Of a DNA stretch of 64,000 bases, positions 17,671 to 59,681 are shown piece by piece (the first letter of the stretch is position 1; each line of letters opens with the position of its first letter). The notes under the pieces are model-generated. The model saw nothing but the letters and a program-made list of their open reading frames with translations. It had not been told where the DNA came from and made no database searches. The position numbers and the translations under genes are program-made. Origin of the DNA: Candidatus Heimdallarchaeum aukensis (GTDB taxonomy: Archaea > Asgardarchaeota > Heimdallarchaeia > Heimdallarchaeales > Heimdallarchaeaceae). Location of the stretch: positions 1,088,001 through 1,152,000 of the forward strand of contig CP084166.1 of the NCBI GenBank assembly GCA_021513695.1, in the 5' to 3' direction.

Positions 17671-19815
17671 CTAATTTAAATTACCTAAGAATTCTAAAAA
17701 AGCTAAAAATTCAGTATTTTTATTTTTAATTAATTTTATAACTAAATTGAAACATTCTTCAAATGTCATATCTTTCCAGTCGTCTTTTTTGAATTTTGTT
17801 ACTGTCTTTTTAATCATACCTTCTAAATCATTCTCCCAAGAGAAAATATTGTAATTCTTTGCAAAACTAATAATCTCCTTTTTCCTTTCTTGTATATTAG
17901 TTGTTTTTGAAGAAAAAATTTCATCTAAATTTATATTACACCGTTGTTTCAAAATTTTACTAATATAACTATTAGTCAAAGAATTTTTAGGTTTAAGAAA
18001 TGCATCAAAATCACATATTAAAACATACTTAATATCAAAGAAATCTGCTATCGATAAAGCCTTGGAAATATCACCGGTACCATCAATTGAAATAACATCC
18101 CAATTTAAGAAATTCGTGCTTGAAAGATTAAGTTCTTTTTGAATATGATGATTCTCCAGAACAGAGAATAAAGTTGTAACAATTTTATTGTCATATGTTC
18201 CTTCAACAAAAATAACATTGGAAGCAAAAAATATGCTTTTTATGTTAGGATCCAAGAGAAAACGATTATAACGCTCTTCATCTTTAAGTCCTTCAAGAAA
18301 AGATCTTAAATATTTAATCTGACTTCCAGTTTTTGTTTTTAAACATCGAAGAATTGAATATAGAAGTTCATTAGATATCAAATCAGGACTATGAGTGACA
18401 ACTAAATAAGAATGCTCATTATCTTGTTTAATATAATTACCAAGTTTCTTTCTAAAAGAAGGATGAAGAGTTTTACCAGGTTCATCTAATATTATAGTAT
18501 CAGCTTCAAATCCATAAATGGAACATAAAACCATTAAAATCTCATAAGCTCCTCCAGGCGAGCAATTTAATCTAAAAGCTTTATTATTTTGCAAGTCGTG
18601 AAATTGAATATCAGGACGTTTACCTGTTAATACTGCACCTTCATCTAATTTAATAGAATAGGAGTTTTGTTGAGAATAAGAAGAATCAGGTTCAATTAAG
18701 AGAACAGGAGCTTTTTTTTCATGAACCTTTTCGTCAACAAGGACAATGTTAAAATTATATTTTTCTTCAGTCATAGTTTTGAAATGTTCTCTGATACGTT
18801 CAAAAATTTCTTGCTCTTTGGGATTTGAACTCATTTTCTTTTGAAATAGTGCATATTTGATTCTTTCAAGAGTTAGTACATTTGTAATGTTTTCTCTCCA
18901 AGGATAACTAAAACCATTTTCTAATAATCCTCTATCTTCTCTTAAAATAACAACTTTTTGTCTAATGATTTTTGAAATAAAATTGCCAAAATATTTGTAG
19001 TAATTATAAATTTCAATTTTATAACCCATTTTTCGAAGCAAAATTCTAAAATCTGCAGATAAATTATGAAGTTCAGGTAAAAAATCAATATTACTGAAAT
19101 CTAATTCAGATAAATATAAAATTAAGGCTTTTTCAAATATATATTGAAAAAAAATATTTTTTAGAAAATCTTCATTATTTTTAACAAGTTCTTTAATATC
19201 TTCTCCAGGATATAAATCATTAAAGGATTTGACGAAAGAAGTAATATTTCGAAAATCTAGATATTGATTTTTACTTAATGTTAAAATTTCATCTAATTTT
19301 TTCTCTTTGTCAACTAAAATAATTATATTTGTTGAAGGATTACTTAAGTAAATGTTTAAAGATTCATTAAATGAAAGTATTAAAAAATATTTTAATCTCT
19401 CAGGATTGTTGCTTTCAGAACAAAAGCCTATTGTTAAATCAGAAAAAGAATCCTTGAGAAAATTCTCCCAATTGTTAAAGAAAGAATAGATTAATGCTCT
19501 ACCGAATTCTTGATCTGAACTTAAATGCATTGAACAAAAAGATAAGACAAGAAATTTACGTAAAAAAATACGTTCATCTTCACTTAGTTCAAAGGTTAAA
19601 TAAATTTTAGATTGAGTTTTGGTGTCCCAAAAAGGAAAATAAGACCAATCTAAGTTAGAGGTTGCAGAGTTGGATAATATAAAATCAATTATTCTAACAA
19701 GATTAGATTTTCCAGAACCATTCTCGCCAACAATAATAGACTTTTGATTAAGATTTATTTCTTGTTCTTCAGAATAAGAAAGAAAGTTCTTGATATAAAT
19801 CTTCTTAAGAATCAT
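17671..19815 (-). CDS. OLD-family / PARIS-like nuclease: N-terminal ABC-type (AAA_15/21) ATPase fused to C-terminal Toprim domain
   Basis: Walker A IVGENGSGKSNL near the N terminus, Walker B IILDEPG, an H-loop VVTHSPDLI, then a Toprim region with VFVEGTYD (Glu) and LICDFDA (DxD). Length is 714 aa. Confidence 0.7.
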   Translation of the reverse strand: MILKKIYIKNFLSYSEEQEINLNQKSIIVGENGSGKSNLVRIIDFILSNSATSNLDWSYFPFWDTKTQSKIYLTFELSEDERIFLRKFLVLSFCSMHLSSDQEFGRALIYSFFNNWENFLKDSFSDLTIGFCSESNNPERLKYFLILSFNESLNIYLSNPSTNIIILVDKEKKLDEILTLSKNQYLDFRNITSFVKSFNDLYPGEDIKELVKNNEDFLKNIFFQYIFEKALILYLSELDFSNIDFLPELHNLSADFRILLRKMGYKIEIYNYYKYFGNFISKIIRQKVVILREDRGLLENGFSYPWRENITNVLTLERIKYALFQKKMSSNPKEQEIFERIREHFKTMTEEKYNFNIVLVDEKVHEKKAPVLLIEPDSSYSQQNSYSIKLDEGAVLTGKRPDIQFHDLQNNKAFRLNCSPGGAYEILMVLCSIYGFEADTIILDEPGKTLHPSFRKKLGNYIKQDNEHSYLVVTHSPDLISNELLYSILRCLKTKTGSQIKYLRSFLEGLKDEERYNRFLLDPNIKSIFFASNVIFVEGTYDNKIVTTLFSVLENHHIQKELNLSSTNFLNWDVISIDGTGDISKALSIADFFDIKYVLICDFDAFLKPKNSLTNSYISKILKQRCNINLDEIFSSKTTNIQERKKEIISFAKNYNIFSWENDLEGMIKKTVTKFKKDDWKDMTFEECFNLVIKLIKNKNTEFLAFLEFLGNLN

Positions 19816-19961: not shown

Positions 19962-20038
19962 GACCGGGTAGTCTAGCTTGGTACGATACATGCTTGGGGT
20001 GCATGTGATCCTGGGTTCGAATCCCAGCTCGGTCACCA
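19962..20038 (+). tRNA. tRNA-Pro (anticodon GGG), CCA encoded
   Basis: Cloverleaf: acceptor GACCGGG/CTCGGTC, anticodon stem CATGC/GCATG with loop TTGGGGT, T arm CTGGG-TTCGAAT-CCCAG, discriminator A, then CCA. Confidence 0.8.
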
Positions 20039-20901: not shown

Positions 20902-21444
20902 TTACATTTTTCTTATTATTTCTATTGCTTCTTCTACTTCTTTTACTTTTATTATTTTTTCTCTTTCTTTTTCATCTATTTTTTCTTCTTTTGCTATTTT
21001 TTCGCTCCACCCACCTGATTTTTCTATTAATATTATTTTTTTACCATATTGCCACGCCATTGCTATTTCTGATAATGTCCCTGCTCCTCCTCCTATCCCT
21101 ACCACCACATCTGCGGACAGTACTATTATTTGATTTCTCGCGTAACTCATTCCTGTTGGTATTATGATATCCACGTATTCATTTGCTTGTTCTTTTTTTG
21201 TTGTCGGCAATATTCCTATAGTCATTCCTTCTCTGTATTTTTTTGCCTTTTTTGCTCCTTTACACACTTCTTTCATTATTCCGTCTTTTCCTCCACATAT
21301 TATTCTGCAATTATTTTCTACTAGTTTTTCTCCTAGTTCCTCTGCTATTTTTTTCAGTTCTTCTTTTATTTCTCCCCCTTTGCCTATTACTGCTACTTGC
21401 TTTATTTTATTCACCTTCGTCCCTCCAAATGTTATTATTTTCAA
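20902..21444 (-). CDS. LOG/TIGR00725-family Rossmann-fold protein (SLOG superfamily)
   Basis: IGGGAGTLSEI (PGGxGTxxE-like) motif and an upstream GGKDGIM block. Length is 180 aa. Confidence 0.6.
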   Translation of the reverse strand: MKIITFGGTKVNKIKQVAVIGKGGEIKEELKKIAEELGEKLVENNCRIICGGKDGIMKEVCKGAKKAKKYREGMTIGILPTTKKEQANEYVDIIIPTGMSYARNQIIVLSADVVVGIGGGAGTLSEIAMAWQYGKKIILIEKSGGWSEKIAKEEKIDEKEREKIIKVKEVEEAIEIIRKM

Positions 21445-22528: not shown

Positions 22529-23560
22529 TTGAAAAAGAACTATGATTTATCTGAATTATTTTCTGTTATCGACAATCAACTAGTTAACTCTCCTCTCAAA
22601 GCAATTGAACTTTTAGAAGATAATTCAGAGCACTTCGAGGACAATATCCTTTTTTTCTTGCGTTTAGGAGAACTTTATTTCAATCAAAAAAAATATGACA
22701 GTGCTTTACTTTCTTTTTCCCGAGCACTAGAGCTTGAACCAGAGAATGTGGAAGTATTATCACATATCAGTGATGTTTACATCAAGAAAAGAGATTACAC
22801 CCAAGCTGAAGTTGCTCTCCTAAAGGCTATAGAATATGAACCTAAGAACACTCTATTACTAAGTAAACTTGCTAATTTGTATTTTGATATTGGTAAATAT
22901 TACGAGTCTCAACAATTGCTCATTCAAGCAATAGAAGAAGAACCTAAAGCTGAATACTATTCTTTACTTGCTACTATCTATAAGAAAATGGATAATGATA
23001 TTGCTTGTTGGAACACTTTAGTAAAAGCAGAACAATTGTTTCCAGATGATATAAACATACTTAACCAGATTGGAGCTTATTATTTTGATTTGGACAATTT
23101 CTCAAAAGCTTTATCTTATTTTCAACGAGCTCTTTCTTTAGACCCTGAAAACCAGCATTCTCTTTTTCAGTTAGCAAAAACTTTTGAGAAAATGAACGAT
23201 CCTTACAATGCTATTGATATGTATTCAAAAATTGTAGAGATTAATCCTGATCATGCTTTAGCTTATTTTTATTTAGGAAAACTTTATTCTTCTCTTGGCG
23301 ACTTCGCTCAAGCACTTATTTGCTATTCTAAATGTTTAGAACTTGATCCTTCCTTCTCTGATGCTGCTTTAGATTTAGCTTCTATACACTGGGTATCAAA
23401 AGAATATAACAAAGCTTTATCTATTTTGAAAGAAGCATTAAAATTTTCAAAAGACAAGGAGATTTATAAGATGATGAGCAATATTTACGAAGAAACAGGC
23501 AATGAAAATAAAGCTAAATATTATAGAGAACTATCTAGAACAAATAATAACGAGGATTAA
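22529..23560 (+). CDS. TPR-repeat protein
   Basis: Multiple 34-aa repeats with the A/L/Y...NP pattern (e.g. ALSYFQRALSLDPEN, ALICYSKCLELDPS). Confidence 0.65.
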   Translation: MKKNYDLSELFSVIDNQLVNSPLKAIELLEDNSEHFEDNILFFLRLGELYFNQKKYDSALLSFSRALELEPENVEVLSHISDVYIKKRDYTQAEVALLKAIEYEPKNTLLLSKLANLYFDIGKYYESQQLLIQAIEEEPKAEYYSLLATIYKKMDNDIACWNTLVKAEQLFPDDINILNQIGAYYFDLDNFSKALSYFQRALSLDPENQHSLFQLAKTFEKMNDPYNAIDMYSKIVEINPDHALAYFYLGKLYSSLGDFAQALICYSKCLELDPSFSDAALDLASIHWVSKEYNKALSILKEALKFSKDKEIYKMMSNIYEETGNENKAKYYRELSRTNNNED

Positions 23561-23562
23561 GA

Positions 23563-23970
23563 TTGTTACTTCTTCCTATTGTCTCTTTTTCACAAGGACT
23601 AAAAGGTACATATCTTCTTTTCATTAGTCTAGACAAAAAATTAACTATTAACCTAAGTAATAAACAATTTTCCCTCGAAAAAGCTAACTATATTTATGTT
23701 GGGAGTGCTTTTGGCTCTGGAGGACTAAAATCTCGGGTTTCTCGCCATCTTTTAAAAACAAAGAATAAACGCTGGCACATAGATTTTTTGACTAGTTCTG
23801 ATCATTCTGAAGTTGTAGGAGTAGTTTATTTTATTAATCAAAAAATTGAGTGCTATTTAGGTAAGCTTCTTTCTACTTTCTCTTCTTTAGAACCTGTTTT
23901 TGGTTTTGGAAACTCTGATTGTAAAGAAAATTGTGATAGTCATTTATTTAAAATTGTAAAAAAGGAATAA
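23563..23970 (+). CDS. GIY-YIG nuclease-superfamily protein (DUF123-like)
   Basis: GTYLLFI then YIYVGSA ... SRVSRH, which fits GIY-x(10-30)-YIG...R...H. It starts 3 nt after the TPR gene stop. Confidence 0.5.
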   Translation: MLLLPIVSFSQGLKGTYLLFISLDKKLTINLSNKQFSLEKANYIYVGSAFGSGGLKSRVSRHLLKTKNKRWHIDFLTSSDHSEVVGVVYFINQKIECYLGKLLSTFSSLEPVFGFGNSDCKENCDSHLFKIVKKE

Positions 23971-24037: not shown

Positions 24038-24445
24038 ATGTTTATGGCAAGTGCAGTTGTCGAGCAATTACTTAATCTTGCTGTTGAAATAGTTCTATTC
24101 TATGCTGCAGCAGCGATTATAAGCGCTTCAATGTTTTCTAAAAAAGCTAAGAAGTGGAGTTGGGTTAACCTGATCATGGCTATTATTGTAAGCTTAGCTT
24201 GGACTTTTTCAATCAATCTCTTTAACGGGCGAGCCGCCGCAGCGACTTTCGGTATCATACTATTTATTATTTGTTTCTTCTTGTGGACTATTGCTGCTGA
24301 TGTTTCTGATAGACGTGCAGCATATGCAGCTCTCTTATCGCTTCTACTATGGTTCCTTTTCTGTTGGGTTTTAATTATTATCCTCCACTTATTCGAAGTA
24401 CACTTATTTGACAGTATACCTTACTTATTTAGCTATTTCACATAA
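24038..24445 (+). CDS. small 4-TM membrane protein
   Basis: Hydropathy only. Confidence 0.4.
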   Translation: MFMASAVVEQLLNLAVEIVLFYAAAAIISASMFSKKAKKWSWVNLIMAIIVSLAWTFSINLFNGRAAAATFGIILFIICFFLWTIAADVSDRRAAYAALLSLLLWFLFCWVLIIILHLFEVHLFDSIPYLFSYFT

Positions 24446-25859
24446 AGAAATCAACAAATTGGTTAATATCCAAAGAATAATTAATTTTATTCTTTACCTT
24501 TTTTTCTTTCTCATACTTATCAAAAAAAAGAGGAAAACGCTCTTTCACTGTATCAATGAAGTAAATAAGTAATTCTACCAACCTAATATTTAATTCACAC
24601 TCTATTTTGTTAACATCACCTTCAACAGCTTGCTTTTCTTTCCAATCAACACAAGGTCCTCCGCAAATATACCTTATGGGACAAGAAGAACATTCTTGTA
24701 TTAAATCTACAAGTTTCACTACATCGTTTTCAAGATCTTTCATGGACAAATTCTTTTTCCATTCTCCAAGTTTGTATTTTTTGTTTCCAATAAGGCTAGA
24801 ACAAGGATAGATTTCTGAATTTGGGCTTAAACTCAGAGCTGTTTTCCCTGCGGGGCAACGAGTAATCAGTTTTTCTCTTGATAATAGTCTATTCAAATAA
24901 CGTGAGATATAATCAGTAGGGCCGATTTTCTTTAAAAAGGATAGTAGTTCTCCTTCATTTAAGTTGAGTAAATGATCTACTAAATCTTCAACCCTTTCTA
25001 GAAAAGAGTCTAATTTTCTTTTATCCCATGCTCGATAATGATTATTATCTATTCTAAGAAGCCTTAAAGAAACATAGTCAAAATATTCTGAATAATAAGA
25101 ATAGAGAATGAACAAGTCTTCTATGTTAGGATGAACAGGTATAATTAAGTGTTTTACTACATTTTTCTTTACTAGAGACAAATTATCTATTACTCTTCTT
25201 TTTACTTTTTCATTTTCGATATCAAGTGTAACAGTCAAAAAACCATATTTATTTACAAAATCAATAAAACTTTGTTTTGGTGAAAAAAAGTTAGTGGAAG
25301 GGAGGAAATAGTAAATGGGAAAAGAGTATTTATTTTTAATCTGTTCAATAAACAGAACCATTTCATTAAAATATTCAAAGTTAAGCGTAATTTCACTTGT
25401 ATAGAAAAAGCTTATTCCTAGCGCTGTTTCTGATTTAGCTTTCCTTTTTAAATCTGCAAAATGTATAATTATTTCTTTAGCTCTTTCTACATCTAACTTT
25501 TCGTTCTCTTTTTTTCTCTCATTTCTTGCATAACAAAACCAACAATTTAAATTACATTCATTTGAAGGATTAATTACCAAATGGTCAAAAGTAACAATTT
25601 CTTTATCGAAACTTGCTCTTTCTTTCTCAGTTTCTACAATAAATTTTCTTTTCTTTAACAATCCCATTTGTGTTAGGATATTTTGATACTCTTTTTCTGA
25701 ATAATACTCCTTTAAGTCCTTTAAAGACAAAAATCTTTTCTTTTCAGAACATAACTCTGAATTACTAATTCTCCAAAAAAATCTAGTTTCAGGAGTATAA
25801 AGATAGGATTTACCATTATAAGAAAAAATCAAGATGTTAGTATTTTCTAGATTTAGCAT
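24438..25859 (-). CDS. radical SAM / SPASM-domain peptide-modifying enzyme with N-terminal RRE-like extension
   Basis: CNLNCWFCY (Cx3Cx2C) after a ~95-aa N-terminal extension. The C-terminal auxiliary cluster cysteines (CPAGKT...YPCSS...CSSCPIRYICGGPC) are typical of SPASM/twitch domains. Confidence 0.7.
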   Translation of the reverse strand: MLNLENTNILIFSYNGKSYLYTPETRFFWRISNSELCSEKKRFLSLKDLKEYYSEKEYQNILTQMGLLKKRKFIVETEKERASFDKEIVTFDHLVINPSNECNLNCWFCYARNERKKENEKLDVERAKEIIIHFADLKRKAKSETALGISFFYTSEITLNFEYFNEMVLFIEQIKNKYSFPIYYFLPSTNFFSPKQSFIDFVNKYGFLTVTLDIENEKVKRRVIDNLSLVKKNVVKHLIIPVHPNIEDLFILYSYYSEYFDYVSLRLLRIDNNHYRAWDKRKLDSFLERVEDLVDHLLNLNEGELLSFLKKIGPTDYISRYLNRLLSREKLITRCPAGKTALSLSPNSEIYPCSSLIGNKKYKLGEWKKNLSMKDLENDVVKLVDLIQECSSCPIRYICGGPCVDWKEKQAVEGDVNKIECELNIRLVELLIYFIDTVKERFPLFFDKYEKEKKVKNKINYSLDINQFVDFFM

Positions 25860-26059
25860 ACAGATCCTGTCTCTTCATAGTCAGCTTCTTCATCATCACT
25901 TTCTTCATCTTGCATAAAGAAAGCTACTTTATCTAACGCAGAATTTTTATCTATAAATTTGCCCAACCTTTTATTCTTTTTAGTATCATAAACCACCCAC
26001 CACCCATCGCTTTCATCTCTGTAAATTTCAAAATCCCCACACTTTTCCCTTTCTGACAT
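25853..26059 (-). CDS. 68-aa acidic peptide translationally coupled to the rSAM/SPASM gene (candidate precursor or DUF1508-like)
   Basis: Its stop overlaps the rSAM start by 7 nt. The C-terminal stretch is DEESDDEEADYEETGSVC. The N-terminal half (FEIYRDESDGWWVVY) resembles a YegP/DUF1508 repeat. Confidence 0.4.
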   Translation of the reverse strand: MSEREKCGDFEIYRDESDGWWVVYDTKKNKRLGKFIDKNSALDKVAFFMQDEESDDEEADYEETGSVC

Positions 26060-26250
26060 ATAGCAAAGTTCAGTTCAATATTTTAAAAATTTTTAGATAA
26101 CTAGCTTCTTATACTTACGAATAATTTTTATTAATTAAAACAAAGAATAGTAATAACAGATATTATTTAACTACTGTTAAGTAATTTAATTAAGATAAAA
26201 ATCAACTATATTTAGAAATTATCAGATAGTGTAATAAGGAGTAAATAAGA

Positions 26251-27762
26251 TTGACCAATGAGGAAATAGAGCAATTAAATCAAGTTAATTTGTTAATATA
26301 TCAAAATAAAGATTTTTTTTCTTCAGATATTTTTCCTACAGAAATCATAGAAGATTCAAAACGTAAAGAGATTAAAAAAGACATAAAGGAATTATTAAAT
26401 GTTGATTTCTTTACTAAAAGTGAGATTTACCCTCTTGTTAGTTATTTCAAGGGGTGGAACTATTCAACTAAAACTTTTTCTACCGAGAATCTTTTTGCGA
26501 TAAGAAAAAATAATGAATCATCTAGTTTGGTTAATATAACACTAATTAAAGAAGAGGTTAATTTAATTAAGTCTCTTCAAGAGATCGGTTTTATTCTTGA
26601 TACACTTGATGGTATTTATAATAAAATCGTCCTATTACAATCTCAGCTCTCAACAATGGAAAGAAGTAAAGAAGAAGAACCTTATTTAGAATTAGAAAAA
26701 AAACTCGACCTCCTTGGAAAATACTATCATTGGATGCTTTCTGAAGAGAAGTCTTTGTCTACTAAAGAAAAAGAAAACATAGTCCAAAAAACAATGTTAA
26801 CAACTGTTCTTTTACTTAGATTAAAAATTCGTTCAGATAGACTTCAATGTTTAGGTGCTTGTAATAAAACTTTCTCAAAAGAAGAATATGCTTCAAAGGA
26901 AGATTGTGACTGTAAAGGTGAAATTGTTTCTGCCCCACCATATTTTGAAATAACTGATATTTCATTTGTTTATCCTGAACAATATAGCGACATAATTCAA
27001 GAAGAAAGGGAATCTTCACCTAAAGGGATTATCGAAAAAGTCAATCGGGCGACTTTTCCTTATCCTCTATTATTATTATTGAACCAAATTAATCATTCAT
27101 ACTTCAGTAAAAATCTAATATTTCCAAAGTATAGTCTTTGGGAATATACAAGTACAAGAGACATAACAAAAATCAATTTTGACTTCTTATCGATAACAGA
27201 TACTGAAGCTTTCTTAGTAGCTTATGTTAGTGATTCAAGATTTTATCATGAAAATTTAGAATCCTCGGTAATAATTCCTGTTCTCTCAAGAAAAATAACA
27301 AGTAATCTTAAAGAAGGATATAGTTGGCATTCTACTATAGAAAATACTCAAATAAATCATTGGAAGATTACACCGTTCATTCCTCTCTCTGATATTAGAA
27401 AATACATGAAGTTAGAAGACATTCGATTAATAAAAGTTGAAGAAAAAACAGAAGAAGTTTTAGATAAAATAACTCAAGAAGAGGAAATACCACTTTCCCA
27501 AAGTCAATTAGAAGAAAAAGAAGATAATAAAGAGAAAATAGTTGAATTTCAAGAGGAGAGCATAACAAGGCCTTTAGAAAAAAAAGTTGTTTATGGATCT
27601 AGAATTAATGTTATAAAAAGAGAAGAAGAAAAAGAAGAAATAGAAATTCCACAGTTTGAAAGACCTATTGGAGAACAAGAAACTACAAAGCTGGAAGAAC
27701 AAGAAACTACAAAGCTGGAAGAACAAGAAGAACAAAAAGAGGAGGAAGAGAACAATGAGTAA
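26251..27762 (+). CDS. hypothetical coiled-coil protein with KE-rich C-terminal tandem repeat (TTG start in ORF track)
   Basis: ORF only. The C terminus is EQETTKLEEQETTKLEEQEEQKEEEE. The stop overlaps the next gene's ATG (ATGAGTAA). Confidence 0.45.
   Translation: MTNEEIEQLNQVNLLIYQNKDFFSSDIFPTEIIEDSKRKEIKKDIKELLNVDFFTKSEIYPLVSYFKGWNYSTKTFSTENLFAIRKNNESSSLVNITLIKEEVNLIKSLQEIGFILDTLDGIYNKIVLLQSQLSTMERSKEEEPYLELEKKLDLLGKYYHWMLSEEKSLSTKEKENIVQKTMLTTVLLLRLKIRSDRLQCLGACNKTFSKEEYASKEDCDCKGEIVSAPPYFEITDISFVYPEQYSDIIQEERESSPKGIIEKVNRATFPYPLLLLLNQINHSYFSKNLIFPKYSLWEYTSTRDITKINFDFLSITDTEAFLVAYVSDSRFYHENLESSVIIPVLSRKITSNLKEGYSWHSTIENTQINHWKITPFIPLSDIRKYMKLEDIRLIKVEEKTEEVLDKITQEEEIPLSQSQLEEKEDNKEKIVEFQEESITRPLEKKVVYGSRINVIKREEEKEEIEIPQFERPIGEQETTKLEEQETTKLEEQEEQKEEEENNE
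27673..27735 (+). repeat. 24-bp tandem direct repeat (gaacaagaaactacaaagctggaa x2 plus a partial third) inside the CDS
   Basis: Read directly. It encodes EQETTKLE twice. Confidence 0.7.
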
Positions 27763-29038
27763 AATATTTCAACTAACAAGTCATTTGAAATACGTTCCCA
27801 AAGACACTATTGATTTGATTAGTGAGTTTGATCAATTATTCTCATCGTTTAAATCTCAAATAAAGAAATTTATCTTAACTCAACCTACTTTTCTTCAAGA
27901 GATTAGAAATCAAATTAAATCAGAGATAGGATTCCTTTCTCCTCAGCAAAAGAATATGGCTTTAGCTTTATATGGTATTATTATCACAGAAGATATTCTA
28001 AAGGAATATTCTCCTTCTCAATACGTAAATGATATTTCTTTTCTCCTAGAAGCTACAGAAAAGAAGAACAAATGCACAGATGACGAATTTATTGGAATTG
28101 TTACAACCTACATCAATTGCTTAAAAGTAGCTCAAACATCTACTAATGCCGTTATCAACAGTTTCATTGAATTAAAAGGTGTTGGAATTGATGATGAAAT
28201 AATAACTGGAATATTAATCAGAAGATACTATTACTATATTTTTACTGAGATTAATGAAATGTTTGAGATTGCAGAGTTTCCTATTGATATAAGATGGATT
28301 ACAGCTTTGCTTGCTTATTCATTAGAAACAGCTGTTCAAAAAACAAAACAGCAGGATGATTCGAAATCCATTTCTGGGATTTATCGTAAGATATTAAACA
28401 AGTATCCCCCTTGTGATGGTTCAAAATATATTTTTGATTTGATTTATGAATTTGTAATCAAAGAGTACTATGACATATTAGATAGAACCTTCAAACAGAG
28501 AGCAGAACTAAAGAAAATTGAAAGAGGGCTTTTAAAGAAAGAAGACTCTTCTAAGGAAGTAAAAGAAGCATCCAAAGAAGAAGCGAAAAGAAAAACAGAA
28601 CATCTCATTACAGTTATTGAAAAGGCTATTTCTGAAACTTTGAAATTTAACAGGGATTTTGACGAAAGAAAGCGTAAAAATTTGGAAGCAAATATTGAAA
28701 CATCATTAAAAAGGCTAGCTTTTGACGAATTTGGTGTTCAAGATATAGCTGATGAGGAAAAATACATGACCTATCTGTTAGAAAGTTGGTTCAAGTTATT
28801 TTTAGAATGGCCTCAAATGGTTATTCCTATTATAAACTTGACTGCTTACTCACGATTCCTAAATGATCCTGTAAATTATATTAAAAAGCACAAAGATGAA
28901 ATTGAAAGGCAACTTCAATTTAAAATAAGAAGACAAATAGGAGGGGAAAGAATGACACCCAAGAATTTATCTGAAGCTTTTTCAAAACTACTTTATGAAA
29001 TTCTTAACAATTCTTCTGTTAGAACACTTACAATTTAA
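27755..29038 (+). CDS. hypothetical 427-aa protein (start revised to the ATG preceded by ggaggaagag)
   Basis: The ORF track begins at 27656, but those 33 codons are read-through of the upstream gene's repeat region. A GGAGG SD sits 6 nt before ATG 27755. Confidence 0.45.
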   Translation: MSKIFQLTSHLKYVPKDTIDLISEFDQLFSSFKSQIKKFILTQPTFLQEIRNQIKSEIGFLSPQQKNMALALYGIIITEDILKEYSPSQYVNDISFLLEATEKKNKCTDDEFIGIVTTYINCLKVAQTSTNAVINSFIELKGVGIDDEIITGILIRRYYYYIFTEINEMFEIAEFPIDIRWITALLAYSLETAVQKTKQQDDSKSISGIYRKILNKYPPCDGSKYIFDLIYEFVIKEYYDILDRTFKQRAELKKIERGLLKKEDSSKEVKEASKEEAKRKTEHLITVIEKAISETLKFNRDFDERKRKNLEANIETSLKRLAFDEFGVQDIADEEKYMTYLLESWFKLFLEWPQMVIPIINLTAYSRFLNDPVNYIKKHKDEIERQLQFKIRRQIGGERMTPKNLSEAFSKLLYEILNNSSVRTLTI

Positions 29039-29040
29039 AA

Positions 29041-30147
29041 TTATATTTTTTCTTTAGATATAGCTAATTTTTCAATTTTTTCTTGGATTACATTAACACC
29101 TATTCCATTTTCTTTAGGAACCCCTAACTCTCCGTTATTGTCTAGTTTGAAGATAGGATCAATTATGTATTCTGTAAAGTATCTTTCACTTTCACTTATA
29201 TCATTTGGTAAGGTGAAATTTTTCATACTCGCTACTGCAACATTCTTTGCTCTACCAATCCCTGTTTCTAACATCCCTCCAACCCATAGAGGTACTTTGA
29301 ATTCTTCTGCCAATCTATGAATTTCTAAAGTTTCAGTTATTCCTCCCACTCGTGAAGGTTTAATATTGATTATTCTTGTTGCATCCATTTCTAAAGCATG
29401 TTTAGCATCATCAAAACTTTTTATTGACTCGTCTAGACATATGGGGGTAGATATCATTTTTTGTAATTTTGAATGCTCTATTATATCCTTATAATGTAAA
29501 GGCTGTTCGATCATCATTAAATCATATTTATCCAATTTTTTGAATATTTCAGCATCTTTCAAACTATAAGCTGCATTAGCATCTACCATCAAACCTAAAT
29601 CTGGAAAATGATCTCTTATTTGTTTTATTATCTCTACATCCCAACCAGGTTCTATTTTGATTTTTACACGTTTGTATTTTTTTTCAATTGCATATTCTAT
29701 TTTTTGAAGTAAAACTGCGAAATCATTTTCAATCCCTAAGCTAATTCCAGAAGGAATTTTGTTTTTCGTTCCTCCTAGAAGCTCTGAAAGAGATTTACCT
29801 TTTATCGTACCATATAAATCCCACAAAGCATCTTCTACACAAGCTTTTGCCATTGGGTTTCCACGTATTTTAGAAACAATAGAAGTAAAATCTTTTGGAT
29901 GCTCAATTTCTTTTTCTTTTTTCAACCATGGGCCAATGAATTTCTTAATAATGTATGTAACTGAATTATTTGTTTCTGGGGAATACCAAGGTCCTGTATC
30001 AGTTACACTTTCTCCCCACCCACATAGGTCTCCAGATTGAAGTTTAGTTAAGACAATTTCTCTTGTTTTTTGAACGCCAAAACTTGTTCTAAAAGGTCTT
30101 TTCAAGTTCATAATTATTTTATAAATAGTTACAGAGTCTATTTTCAT
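29041..30147 (-). CDS. enolase-superfamily enzyme (o-succinylbenzoate synthase / N-acylamino-acid racemase-like)
   Basis: Mandelate racemase/MLE-family blocks (KIKIEPGWDVE, LMVDANAAYS, IEQPL) with metal-ligand D/E/D spacing. Length is 368 aa. Confidence 0.65.
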   Translation of the reverse strand: MKIDSVTIYKIIMNLKRPFRTSFGVQKTREIVLTKLQSGDLCGWGESVTDTGPWYSPETNNSVTYIIKKFIGPWLKKEKEIEHPKDFTSIVSKIRGNPMAKACVEDALWDLYGTIKGKSLSELLGGTKNKIPSGISLGIENDFAVLLQKIEYAIEKKYKRVKIKIEPGWDVEIIKQIRDHFPDLGLMVDANAAYSLKDAEIFKKLDKYDLMMIEQPLHYKDIIEHSKLQKMISTPICLDESIKSFDDAKHALEMDATRIINIKPSRVGGITETLEIHRLAEEFKVPLWVGGMLETGIGRAKNVAVASMKNFTLPNDISESERYFTEYIIDPIFKLDNNGELGVPKENGIGVNVIQEKIEKLAISKEKI

Positions 30148-30277: not shown

Positions 30278-31120
30278 TTAAAGTTCAAAATTTTTTTGCA
30301 GGACATAATAAGACTCTATTTCCTCTGGATTCTTTATTACATAGAGATCCACGATTGTATAATTCTTCTTCAAGTAATGTTGGAAAACTTTTCTTGTCTT
30401 CATTCTCCATTCTATTGCTAAAGAGTTATTTTCTTTCTTTATTTCATTAATGTTCGGGGGTATTCTTACAAATAGTAAATCTTTGCTAGCATTTAGTTTC
30501 AAATCCTTAGGGTGTAAAAATTTGTCTTTTTTTTCAGCAGATAAGACTAAATTTACAGATTTTAATGAGCTAGAATAATCATCAAATTTACTTTGAAGTC
30601 TATCTTCCACTCTTCTGCTTTCTATATACCAGTTTACATAGAATCTATCTGTCGGTAATCCTATGTTCTCTGCATCATGCATTTCTCCCCAGTAATTCTC
30701 CTTGTAAGTGTTACATACCGCCCCTAACTTGTGAAGATTTAGAAAAGCGTTCTTGCTTTGTAGAGGATCAAAAGTCCAATTAATTAGTTTAAACCCTTTT
30801 TTTATAGCCCATTTTCTCTGCTCTAGCTTTAACTTAAAACCTAAGCCTAGATTCTGATAATCTTTTTTAACTGCGTTATGGTGTGAGTAAATGAAAAACC
30901 CATATTCTGAAAGATTTCCAATCCATCCCCACACATAACCTATAAGTTCATCCTTTTTATATGCACCAATGAGAACAGCGCCACTCCTTTTAGTTGCTTT
31001 AAATAATCTCCTTGGAACTAATTCTAGATCAGGCATACCCCAAGCTTCTCTCTCAATAGCTTCTATTTCACTGAAACTTTTTTCATCTTCTATCTCTTTG
31101 AAAATGATTTCACTAGACAT
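30278..31120 (-). CDS. GNAT-fold acyltransferase-like protein
   Basis: HHNAVKKDYQNLGLGFKLK (motif A-like) in a 280-aa protein, upstream of the enolase-superfamily gene on the same strand. Confidence 0.4.
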   Translation of the reverse strand: MSSEIIFKEIEDEKSFSEIEAIEREAWGMPDLELVPRRLFKATKRSGAVLIGAYKKDELIGYVWGWIGNLSEYGFFIYSHHNAVKKDYQNLGLGFKLKLEQRKWAIKKGFKLINWTFDPLQSKNAFLNLHKLGAVCNTYKENYWGEMHDAENIGLPTDRFYVNWYIESRRVEDRLQSKFDDYSSSLKSVNLVLSAEKKDKFLHPKDLKLNASKDLLFVRIPPNINEIKKENNSLAIEWRMKTRKVFQHYLKKNYTIVDLYVIKNPEEIESYYVLQKNFEL

Positions 31121-31298: not shown

Positions 31299-32559
31299 AT
31301 GAAAGAAAAAATGAGTAGAAAGGTGTGGCGAACTGAGGAAATATGGGTGAAGGATTCGATCACTCTAAAACAGTTGGCACACAAGGTAAAAAACTTGTAT
31401 AATCAAGCAAATTATATTATTAAGTATCAGTTAAGAAAAAGTAAATATTTCACAAAAGAGTTTGAACTGATGAATATTTTAAGGTATCACCCGACTTACA
31501 CAGCTTTACCTGGTCATACGGCACAACGGACGATAAAGTTTCTATGTTTAGCGTGGAAAGGGTATTTTAGGTCTTTAGAAGAATGGAAAAAGGAACCAGA
31601 AAAGTTTAACGGTAAACCCTGTCCTCCAAGATATAAGAAGAAAGAAGGACTTGCTATAATCTATTTTACTAACTCTCAAGTGAAAATTAAAGAAGAAAAA
31701 GAACAAGAAAAAGAAAAATTTTTTATCTCTTTCCCTAAACGTGTAGGACTAAAGATAGTTACAAGACTGTCTCCTTCAACGAAAGTGAAGTTTGCCCGTC
31801 TCATACCTATGGGGACGAAGTTTAAATTAGAGATAGTTTACGAGAAAGAGGTAGAAGAACAAAAAAAAACGACATGCAGAAAGAGTTCTAGCTCTTGATC
31901 TGGGAGTGAATAATTTAGTCGCAGGTTTAACCACTATTCCAGGTGAAAAAGGTTTTCTGATAAATGGTAGACCCATTAAAGCTGTTAACCAGTGGTTTAA
32001 TAAACGTAGGGCAAAGTTACAGTCAATCTATGACAAGCAAGGATTAACCACCTGGGGAAGAAAAATGTTTCAACTCCAGTTAGAACGAATGTGTAAAATC
32101 ACCAACTATTTCCATAAAGCAAGTAGAAAAATAGTAGACTATTGTTCAGAAAAAAACATTGATACGATAGTTATAGGTTACAACCCCCGATGGAAACAAG
32201 AAGTGATTATGGGTAAAAAGAATAATCAAACCTTTGTTTTTATACCCTTCAAATCGCTAATTGACAAAATCACTTACAAAGCAGAAGAAAAAGGAATAAA
32301 AGTTCTTCCTACCGAAGAGTCCTACACCTCTGTCTACAGTTTCTTGGATAATGAAGAGATAGCTTTCCACCTCCATTATGCTGGTAAAAGAATCCATCGT
32401 GGACTATTTATCAGTACCAGAGGATTAAAAATTAATGCTGATATCAACTCTGCAGGTAATATCGGTCGCAAAGTATTCCCCACGTTATTCTCTGTTATGT
32501 CTAACTACGGGATAGTCTGGGGTGCAGTGGTTCACCCCGTCCGTTGGAAAATAAGTTAG
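31299..32559 (+). pseudogene. tnpB: tnpB (RuvC-like RNA-guided nuclease family), frameshifted in an A9 run near 31860
   Basis: Split across two ORFs (199 aa and 217 aa). RuvC-I ALDLGVNNL is visible in copy 2, and the RuvC-I region is at the frameshift in copy 1. RuvC-II is EESYTS and RuvC-III is NADINSAGNI. No CxxC...CxxC zinc finger lies between RuvC-II and RuvC-III. Confidence 0.6.
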
Positions 32560-59496: not shown

Positions 59497-59571
59497 TGGT
59501 AGTCCCCAGGAGATTTGAACTCCTGCCCCCGGATCCAGAGTCCGGGATCCTTGCCACTAGACTAGGGGACT
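59497..59571 (-). tRNA. tRNA-Gln (anticodon CUG)
   Basis: The reverse complement folds as AGTCCCC/GGGGACT acceptor, CCGGA-CTCTGGA-TCCGG anticodon arm and AGGAG-TTCAAAT-CTCCT T arm, followed by ACCA. Confidence 0.8.
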
Positions 59572-59606: not shown

Positions 59607-59681
59607 TGGTAGTCCCCAGGAGATTCGAACTCCTGCCACCGGATTCAAAGTCCGGAATCCTTGCCGCTAGACTAGGGGACT
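59607..59681 (-). tRNA. tRNA-Gln (anticodon UUG)
   Basis: Same scaffold as the neighbouring tRNA, with anticodon loop CTTTGAA and T loop TTCGAAT. It lies 35 nt from the first tRNA-Gln. Confidence 0.8.

Follow-up and report, generated by a model that had tools for sequence, protein, structure and literature searches.

Radical S-adenosylmethionine (SAM) enzymes with a SPASM domain, paired with peptides, have yielded thioethers, cyclophanes, cyclopropanes and the cofactors pyrroloquinoline quinone (PQQ) and mycofactocin. The RRE, the recognition element of RiPPs (ribosomally synthesised peptides that are modified after translation), is a PqqD-like winged helix-turn-helix of three strands and three helices that binds the precursor, and QhpD indicates that such enzymes can act on a protein, not just on a short peptide. 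MftC, of the mycofactocin system, acts on the C-terminal Val-Tyr of MftA by oxidative decarboxylation and cross-linking. In CteB, PapB and Tte1186, auxiliary cluster I has three Cys ligands and binds a substrate Cys or selenocysteine; of the characterised substrates, those of CteB/Tte1186 and PapB have the donor Cys on the N-terminal side of the acceptor (PMC10177961). TigE has the same seven SPASM cysteines, with a Tyr as the fourth ligand of auxiliary cluster I, and the GYW motif, whose Tyr ligates that cluster, is reported as unique to the radical SAM cyclopropyl synthases (PMC10878394). Here we describe a gene pair of this well-known kind in a window of 64,000 nucleotides (nt; G+C 31%) from Candidatus Heimdallarchaeum aukensis (GCA_021513695.1, contig CP084166.1, positions 1,088,001-1,152,000 of the forward strand). 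It comprises a small open reading frame (ORF), the presumed substrate gene, and the gene of a radical SAM/SPASM enzyme. A first-pass annotation had proposed a candidate RiPP locus here, and both the enzyme class and the conserved, coupled small gene support that proposal. In the general definition, a RiPP cluster has a ribosomal precursor and a dedicated enzyme that modifies it, and a core peptide is usually released by proteolysis; of this, the pairing of the genes and its conservation are what we observe.

We read the locus as a Heimdallarchaeia-specific two-gene operon encoding a substrate protein and its modifying enzyme, with a thioether formed at the C-terminal tail and a product that remains intracellular. 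Taken whole, this reading is tentative and falls somewhat short of probable, and its parts differ in strength. That the small protein is the substrate of the enzyme is highly probable; the thioether chemistry is plausible but still doubtful. We observe the gene pair with its conservation and coupling, the architecture and cysteine pattern of the enzyme and the conservation of the tail; the substrate role, the residue that would be modified, the chemistry and the intracellular fate are inferred.

The gene pair and its conservation

The pair occurs once within the window (Table 1). At the junction, the sequence ATGCTAA joins the stop codon of the small ORF to the ATG of the enzyme gene in a 7-nt overlap, just as first annotated. 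The nearest proteins come from metagenome-assembled genomes (MAGs) of Candidatus Heimdallarchaeaceae, where the enzyme is 99% identical to protein P0001. The complete genome of Ca. Heimdallarchaeum endolithica PR6 (locus L008) has the same locus, with a small protein 88% and an enzyme 75% identical to those of the window.

We collected 32 genome loci, seven through enzyme homologues and 25 through the small protein in contigs representing one genome per species, and twelve further metagenome loci. Because L032 ends inside the small gene, 31 genome loci have downstream DNA; in L035 and L037 fewer than 300 nt follow the small gene, which leaves ten metagenome loci that are long enough. In all 31 of these genome loci, and in nine of the ten metagenome loci, the enzyme gene lies directly 3' of the small gene. 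The pair persists where the enzymes are only 32-37% identical, and the conservation of the small ORF beside orthologous enzymes, suggested earlier as a check, holds down to that level. Adjacency alone is weak evidence, because about 12 kb around the pair is syntenic throughout the clade (two large proteins, GNAT, MR_MLE, DUF123, TPR and a conserved 300-aa protein). The stronger arguments for a link are the coupling of the two genes and the persistence of the pair at such low enzyme identity.

Across the 32 loci, the small ORF and the enzyme gene meet in a 7-nt overlap or are separated by a 5-nt gap. In most loci the Val-Cys codons contain an in-frame ATG or TTG, placed 7 nt ahead of the small ORF's end. 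Where this codon is TTG, an ATG or GTG lies four codons further downstream, and for this reason the true start codon of the enzyme is ambiguous in most relatives. We favour ordinary translational coupling as the probable relation between the two genes. A programmed frameshift fusing them was rejected: although their frame relation is conserved, the junction lacks a slippery heptamer and offers an in-frame start (ATG, GTG or TTG). Selenocysteine insertion or read-through at a terminal Cys-TGA was also rejected, given that the window ends in TGC-TAA and L001 in TAG, while most relatives end in TGT/TGC-TGA. About 19-38 nt 5' of the ATG of the small ORF, nearly all loci carry a purine-rich run and a TATA-like element, which in related loci resembles GAAAAnnATTTATA at about -38 to -27. 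This element suggests an archaeal promoter and a two-gene transcript that would be leaderless or nearly so.

The small protein of the window ends in QDEESDDEEADYEETGSVC; it has just two cysteines, C7 and the C-terminal C68, in agreement with the first-pass annotation. A search with this single sequence returned one cluster only. The profile built from seven orthologues out of neighbouring loci returned 34 clusters of 60-68 aa, all from Heimdallarchaeia-type MAGs. An exhaustive HMMER profile search against 1.84 billion representatives gave three true clusters of the family and none elsewhere; five longer matches were rejected as relatives, being spurious hits to FG-GAP or RanBP repeat proteins. 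Judged by these searches, the family appears confined to Heimdallarchaeia. Pfam and NCBIfam scans assigned the small ORF to no family and gave only DUF2188 and HEWD, at E of about 0.01 and in a minority of members. The competing possibility named in the first-pass annotation, a plain DUF1508/YegP-type protein found elsewhere without radical SAM partners, fared poorly: the small protein had no match to the Pfam DUF1508 profile (DUF1508/UPF0339/YegP) and no relatives elsewhere among the representatives searched. The small ORF is evidently a real conserved gene and not a chance ORF, because it has 34 homologous clusters, 17 invariant positions and a nearly constant place before the enzyme gene.

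The invariant positions, taken from a 26-sequence alignment (A2), are M1, E5, C7, G8, W20, W21, G33, K34, F35, K38, A41, L42, A46, E63, S66, V67 and C68; C7 and G8 are invariant in alignment A1 as well. Thirty-three of the 34 clusters end in SVC, and the exception (P0049) may be a truncated or mis-called protein. Over the 32 loci, the tail consensus is E-[ST]-x-S-[VT]-C followed by the stop codon, with ESESVC in 16 loci, ETESVC in five, ETGSVC in four, ESESTC in three and four single variants. Residue 67 is Thr in three loci, though V67 is invariant in A2. The first-pass annotation regarded the acidic stretch as the core of the peptide. The stretch is present, but it is a linker (about residues 52-62) that differs in length among relatives, with seven additional residues in the window's lineage, and the conserved element is the last six residues. 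AlphaFold predicted strands at residues 4-7, 10-14, 21-25 and 30-35, a helix at 38-51 and a disordered tail, with a predicted local distance difference test (pLDDT) of 79-89 over residues 4-51. The N-terminal domain weakly resembles UPF0339/AP2-like domains. The protein has no repeats, and its sole CX3[DE] is C7-G-D-F-E11, in which E11 is not kept in all clades. No double-glycine or other cleavage motif was apparent in the small-protein sequences by inspection.

The enzyme has the CX3CX2C motif (C102, C106 and C109) after an N-terminal extension of about 95-100 aa, very close to what was first described, and the Pfam Radical_SAM match starts at residue 96. The motif aligns with the C104/C108/C111 segment of CteB (CteB numbering from PMC10177961). 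PF04055 matches 13 of 13 family members (best E = 6.9e-9), and the window enzyme is borderline, at 27.4 bits for a gathering score of 29.5. We place the enzyme in the radical SAM superfamily, in which CX3CX2C binds the SAM-cleaving cluster within a partial TIM barrel, because the motif and the PF04055 match are found in all 13 members and its AlphaFold model matches radical SAM structures. The C-terminal auxiliary-cluster cysteines claimed earlier turned out to be a full seven-Cys SPASM set that includes CX2CX5CX3C and scores 43.4 bits with TIGR04085 (cut-off 27). This is the pattern of CteB, PapB and Tte1186, and in the profile alignment the seven cysteines pair one-to-one with those of CteB. 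[quoted passage not shown] With the CteB cluster assignment as the guide (PMC10177961), C335, C353 and C403 are predicted to ligate auxiliary cluster I, with one open iron site, and C390, C393, C399 and C421 to ligate auxiliary cluster II. An invariant motif peculiar to this enzyme family, G-P-x-D-Y-x3-Y, lies 14-22 residues N-terminal of the first SPASM Cys in the 13 members.

The N-terminal domain is RRE-like at the level of the fold, as the first-pass annotation had it: AlphaFold gave three strands and then helices, and the CteB alignment includes CteB residues 6-108, covering its RRE. No match to Pfam PqqD was listed for any of the 13 members, and in some enzyme clades the domain is about 30 residues shorter with fewer helices. 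A profile search of all PDB sequences returned a single relative, CteB (5WGG/5WHY; E = 2e-24), aligned from about residue 6 of both proteins. The AlphaFold model of the enzyme (pLDDT 83.7, predicted template-modelling (TM) score 0.87) comprises three N-terminal strands, helices, a barrel and a SPASM domain. In a Foldseek search against the PDB, CteB was the best match, over the full length and with TM scores of 0.69-0.74. It was followed by TigE (8VPO), SuiB (5V1S) and ChlB (9GM3), so that TigE is the third structural match behind two CteB entries.

The nearest curated families, matched by 13 of 13 members, were PapB (best E = 1.2e-23), nif11-peptide maturase, SCIFF maturase, CbpB and QhpD (8.9e-18); of these five, PapB, SCIFF maturase and QhpD are thioether formers. 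For the window enzyme, the NCBIfam scores were 74 bits for the nif11-peptide maturase (cut-off 519), 70.8 for the SCIFF maturase (TIGR03974; 425), 70.4 for PapB (NF047865; 340) and 62 for QhpD (453), with CbpB also near. The assignment by profile models that the first-pass annotation had suggested thus gave a pass for SPASM only, with the cut-offs for the anaerobic sulfatase-maturating enzymes (anSMEs), MftC and the other reported equivalogs missed; PqqE was absent among the NCBIfam matches listed for the window enzyme and the 13 members.

Membership in the described families was rejected on several grounds. For SCIFF, these were the low enzyme score and a small protein with two Cys and no NCBIfam match; for the PapB-type ranthipeptides, the enzyme score and a precursor without repeated CX3D. 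MftC was rejected on a TIGR03962 score of 16.8 bits (cut-off 265), a precursor terminus of S-[V/T]-C and the lack of a separate RRE gene among the called neighbours. The cyclopropyl synthases (TvgB/TigE) were rejected on the absence of GYW from 13 of 13 members and on a precursor without repeats, since theirs repeats a TVGG or TIGSVS motif. The anSME model (TIGR03942) was absent from the matches of the window enzyme at E up to 1e-5 and from the best 25 listed, and gave sub-threshold matches in 4 of 13 members. No sulfatase was found among the neighbour genes, as the first-pass annotation had noted. Apart from the generic models of the radical SAM and SPASM domains, neither protein falls into a specific curated family.

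Table 1. Coordinates of the features in the window and, where a locus label is given, in related loci
Feature	Position	Strand	Remarks
OLD-family nuclease-like protein gene	17671-19815	(-)	714 aa; AAA_15 + OLD-like TOPRIM
tRNA-Pro(GGG)	19962-20038	(+)	
SLOG cluster-4 protein gene	20902-21444	(-)	180 aa
TPR protein gene	22529-23560	(+)	343 aa
DUF123 protein gene	23563-23970	(+)	135 aa; 93 bits
Convergent hydrophobic protein gene	24038..24445	(+)	135 aa; about four transmembrane segments by inspection; no Pfam/NCBIfam match
Radical SAM/SPASM enzyme gene	24438..25859	(-)	473 aa; CteB-type architecture
SPASM cysteines C335, C353, C390, C393, C399, C403, C421	24597..24857	(-)	seven, all invariant (13-member alignment)
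SAM-cleaving [4Fe-4S] cluster motif C102-x3-C106-x2-C109	25533..25556	(-)	invariant in 13/13 family members
N-terminal RRE-like domain	25635..25859	(-)	residues ~1-75; strands 10-14, 17-22, 27-32 and helices 46-49, 55-70 (AlphaFold)
Small ORF, presumed substrate/precursor	25853..26059	(-)	68 aa: folded N-terminal domain (predicted), acidic linker, conserved C-terminal tail
Codons of tail E63-T-G-S66-V67-C68	25856..25873	(-)	proposed modification site
Cys7 codon	26039..26041	(-)	second invariant cysteine; motif E-[KQ]-C-G-D-[FY]
A-rich run and TATA-like element AAAAATTTTTAAAATAT	26078..26094	(-)	19-35 nt upstream of the small ORF ATG
First large gene	26251-27762	(+)	503 aa; divergent from the small ORF
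Second large gene	27755-29038	(+)	~427 aa; divergent from the small ORF
MR_MLE (enolase superfamily) gene	29041-30147	(-)	
GNAT acetyltransferase gene	30278-31120	(-)	
ORF matching OrfB_IS605 and Cas12f1-like TNB domain	31906-32559	(+)	217 aa
tRNA-Gln genes (CTG, TTG anticodons)	59497-59571, 59607-59681	(-), (-)	tandem, 35 nt apart
Ras-family GTPase gene, L004	5182-5706	(-)	
Ras-family GTPase gene, L006	5199-5711	(-)	
Ras-family GTPase gene, L042	1706-2224	(+)	
Second radical SAM gene, L004	7940-9073	(+)	377 aa; Radical_SAM + Fer4_12

Proposed tail modification and rival explanations

In the mechanism we propose, the RRE-like N-terminal domain would dock the small protein, and the flexible acidic linker would carry the conserved tail to the active site. 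The terminal Cys would then bind auxiliary cluster I through its thiolate, at the open iron site, in the way shown for substrates of PapB and Tte1186 (PMC10177961). The SAM-derived 5'-deoxyadenosyl radical would abstract hydrogen from one of the tail residues close by, for which the candidates are the invariant Glu at -5, Ser at -2 and Val/Thr at -1 relative to the terminal Cys. A small C-terminal thioether ring would result. The product would stay in the cell as a modified small protein, as presumed for the clostridial SCIFF peptides, and would not be a cleaved and exported antibiotic. Among the possible chemistries we put the thioether first because all close relatives, in sequence and structure, whose chemistry is known form thioethers. 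A role inside the cell, like that of SCIFF or of a cofactor, is favoured over an antibiotic one because there is no conserved protease or exporter and the pair is single-copy in conserved synteny. This same context, with neither peptidase nor transporter recognisable among the conserved neighbours, counts for the proposal as a whole, as do the tight coupling and co-occurrence of the two genes, the invariant tail on a variable linker, the predicted folded domain with its disordered tail, the likeness of the enzyme to CteB and to thioether-forming families, its seven SPASM cysteines, the restricted distribution and the TATA-like element.

Several observations weigh against the proposal. The enzyme reached no curated maturase cut-off, its best scores being 70-74 bits for cut-offs of 340-519. 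The invariant Cys is the last residue, so the acceptor would have to lie upstream, which is the reverse of CteA, PapA and QhpC. The donor Cys of QhpC is likewise N-terminal to its acceptor; NxxcB works with the acceptor upstream of the donor Cys. The seven SPASM cysteines do not prove an open iron site, considering that TigE fills the site with a Tyr, and the G-P-x-D-Y-x3-Y motif could supply a ligand to auxiliary cluster I in the same way. Cys7 is as invariant as C68, and the mechanism gives it no role. RREs normally bind leader peptides that are linear, whereas the "leader" of the small protein has a predicted fold. The enzyme is 75% identical to that of L008, compared with 90-95% for flanking genes; it evolves faster than its neighbourhood, and this faster divergence is not typical of a housekeeping enzyme. 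Finally, in the 2.5-kb contig L042 the gene after the small gene, on the same strand, encodes a Ras-like GTPase, and the 900 nt that remain contain no enzyme gene.

The same pair may carry out a different chemistry on the tail, such as epimerisation of a tail residue, an anSME-like oxidation that turns Cys (or Ser66) into formylglycine, formation of a C-C cross-link, or a cyclopropane ring made on Val67 in the manner of TvgB and TigE. Enzymes of the same fold, with RRE, radical SAM and SPASM domains, do all these reactions, and TigE, SuiB and ChlB are the next structural matches after CteB. The sub-threshold TIGR03942 matches and the conservation of Val/Thr67 and Ser66 also fit. We nevertheless consider this unlikely. 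The GYW motif of the cyclopropyl synthases is missing from every member, neither a sulfatase nor a C/S-x-P-x-R motif is present, and to our knowledge anSMEs lack an RRE domain. The strongest likeness, in both sequence and structure, is to thioether formers, and the invariant terminal Cys fits a sulfur donor.

Less probable again is a mycofactocin-like cofactor built on a scaffold peptide, in which the C-terminal Cys would be oxidatively decarboxylated and cross-linked to the preceding Val/Thr, yielding a small molecule, thiol-bearing or heterocyclic, or else a prosthetic group bound to the protein, for use in the cell. Conservation falls on the very end of the small protein, S-[V/T]-C and then the stop, with a beta-branched residue before the terminal one; the MftA terminus, G-V-Y, is echoed by this tail. 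A single-copy, clade-wide, syntenic pair without an exporter fits a cofactor better than an antibiotic, and a released fragment might in principle be processed by the products of the GNAT and MR_MLE genes, which nearly all loci have in synteny within about 4 kb. However, these two genes are inverted in the window's lineage, and their linkage may be synteny only. The enzyme's MftC score is far below those for the thioether-forming families, the conserved neighbourhood has no recognisable peptidase or homologue of MftB, D, E or F, and the RRE-like domain is fused to the enzyme here, where mycofactocin has the RRE as a separate protein. We assign a similarly low chance to a clade-wide, housekeeping-type system in which a CteB-like enzyme would remodel the C-terminal Ser-Val-Cys of a folded protein into a new thiol or thioether cofactor, protein-bound or released, by a mycofactocin- or PQQ-like logic with new chemistry and a new scaffold; to this reading belongs the promoter region that the pair and a Ras-family GTPase gene have in common in most lineages, a hint of a regulatory link in the archaea nearest to eukaryotes.

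It is quite improbable that the small protein is not a substrate but an accessory or regulatory partner, for example of a Ras-family GTPase, or a redox or thiol partner of the enzyme, with adjacency reflecting co-regulation or synteny. Most related loci have a divergent Ras-family GTPase gene (170-174 aa; Pfam Ras, 136 bits) some 100 nt upstream, and a functional link between the GTPase and the small protein may exist. The 12-kb synteny, which makes adjacency weak evidence, the L042 arrangement and the predicted folded domain with its weak UPF0339/AP2-like resemblance point the same way. However, the GTPase gene is missing from the window's lineage (L001, L002, L008 and L033) and from L003, where the pair is kept, and the small gene keeps its translational coupling to that of the enzyme. 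A substrate for a Cys-binding SPASM enzyme should look like this, with a disordered linker and an invariant tail that ends in Cys, and the enzyme has its own putative peptide-recognition domain with no other candidate substrate nearby.

A secreted antimicrobial or signal RiPP, with the N-terminal 50 residues as a cleaved leader, the acidic peptide exported and the neighbouring membrane protein serving export or immunity, follows the general logic of precursor-plus-radical-SAM clusters and could draw on the frequent membrane-protein neighbour (23 of 33 loci) and the fast-evolving enzyme, but we regard it as having little chance: the conserved neighbourhood offers no recognisable gene for a peptidase, an ABC transporter or other export function, no cleavage motif is apparent, the membrane-protein gene runs convergently, is not co-transcribed and went undetected in about ten loci, and the tail is nearly identical clade-wide in a single-copy, syntenic pair, unlike the fast-diversifying bacteriocins.

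Neighbouring genes and the rest of the window

The first-pass annotation had included the four-transmembrane protein in the locus. Its gene does lie on the opposite strand and overlaps the 3' end of the enzyme gene by 8 nt, but a core role was not sustained. By tblastn, the gene was found in 23 of the 33 loci with enough DNA past the enzyme gene; it was undetected in L006, L007, L016, L023, L025, L028, L029, L038, L041 and L015, of which the last has only about 210 nt left. Because it is convergent and detected in only these 23 loci, it is probably a frequent neighbour and not a core part of the system. No peptidase or transporter domain was recognisable among the conserved neighbours.

With the ATG at 27755 taken as the start of the second, the two large genes upstream of the pair share 8 nt. 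Neither had a Pfam or NCBIfam match, and both are present in every related locus, with 24-46% identity in distant lineages. The first large protein of the window ends in an acidic tandem repeat (EQETTKLE, twice) and a Glu-rich stretch, at about 27650-27760. The MR_MLE and GNAT genes that follow are syntenic in all relatives; in most lineages they form a same-strand array with the two large genes, and in the window's lineage they are inverted. On the other side, the DUF123 gene abuts the TPR gene, and the two are syntenic with the locus in nearly all relatives. Between the window and L008, the enzyme and the first large protein are 75-76% identical and the DUF123 protein 79%; the four-transmembrane, TPR, MR_MLE, GNAT and 300-aa proteins are 90-95% identical.

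A second, unrelated radical SAM gene lies just past the enzyme or four-transmembrane gene in L004 and is also present in L005, L007, L009-L014, L017-L020, L022, L024, L025, L027, L036 and L040; it had no tblastn match in the window.

Elsewhere in the window, the 217-aa ORF with OrfB_IS605 and TNB matches looks like a TnpB-type transposon protein, probably a truncated one. The OLD-like nuclease gene adjoins the tRNA-Pro(GGG) gene, after which comes the SLOG gene, and this stretch may be a defence or mobile island at a tRNA gene. Two tRNA-Gln genes stand in tandem near the end of the window (Table 1).

Comparison with known systems

The substrate-enzyme pair is very likely undescribed. Literature searches found no description of it and no paper linking Heimdallarchaeia to such a system, and the public annotation is generic ("SPASM domain-containing protein" for the enzyme and "hypothetical protein" for the small protein). 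An RRE-radical SAM-SPASM enzyme with a small substrate is a well-known kind of system; the protein family described here is new. Three features are unusual, namely the folded scaffold, as predicted, the conserved Cys at the extreme C-terminus and the restriction to an Asgard clade, and they leave room for new chemistry or a new cofactor. Heimdallarchaeia are the archaea closest to eukaryotes. The pair could reveal a new C-terminal modification or a new cofactor; if it makes only another thioether peptide, it would still extend CteB/SCIFF-type systems to Asgard archaea.

Four groups of known systems come closest. The small UPF0339/DUF1508 (YegP) proteins, for example HVO_2922 of Haloferax volcanii, are counted among them. 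The mycofactocin system (MftA, MftB and MftC) shares a radical SAM/SPASM enzyme, conservation at the last residues of a small ribosomal product, with a beta-branched residue beside the terminal one, and a context that looks intracellular and cofactor-like. It differs in the terminus (Gly-Val-Tyr there, Ser-Val-Cys here), in the RRE, since an RRE-like domain is fused to the enzyme here, and in its MftD, E and F, which have no equivalents at this locus.

PapB with PapA, which forms thioethers from Cys to Asp C-beta in CX3D motifs, and QhpD with QhpC, which links Cys to Asp/Glu in a protein subunit, are the best NCBIfam similarities. A further likeness is that the tail of the small protein is Asp/Glu-rich, with an invariant Glu five residues before the Cys. 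The scores are far under the cut-offs, however; the small protein lacks a repeated CX3D, its donor Cys would come after the acceptor, the opposite of the order in PapA and QhpC, and no amine dehydrogenase genes lie near the pair.

The SCIFF system of Clostridia (CteA/Tte1186a with CteB/Tte1186 (ScfB)) has an unrelated precursor, with six Cys in about 45 residues, whereas the small protein here has two in 60-68, an N-terminal domain that is predicted to fold and a conserved Cys as its very last residue. SCIFF hosts are bacterial and the host here is archaeal, and the TIGR03974 score falls well short of its cut-off, as given above. The two systems also share several features. Both enzymes combine an RRE or, here, an RRE-like domain with a radical SAM domain and a seven-Cys SPASM domain, and CteB is the sole solved relative by sequence and the best structural match. 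In both, a small gene is followed by the maturase gene in a single-copy, clade-conserved pair with no protease or exporter.

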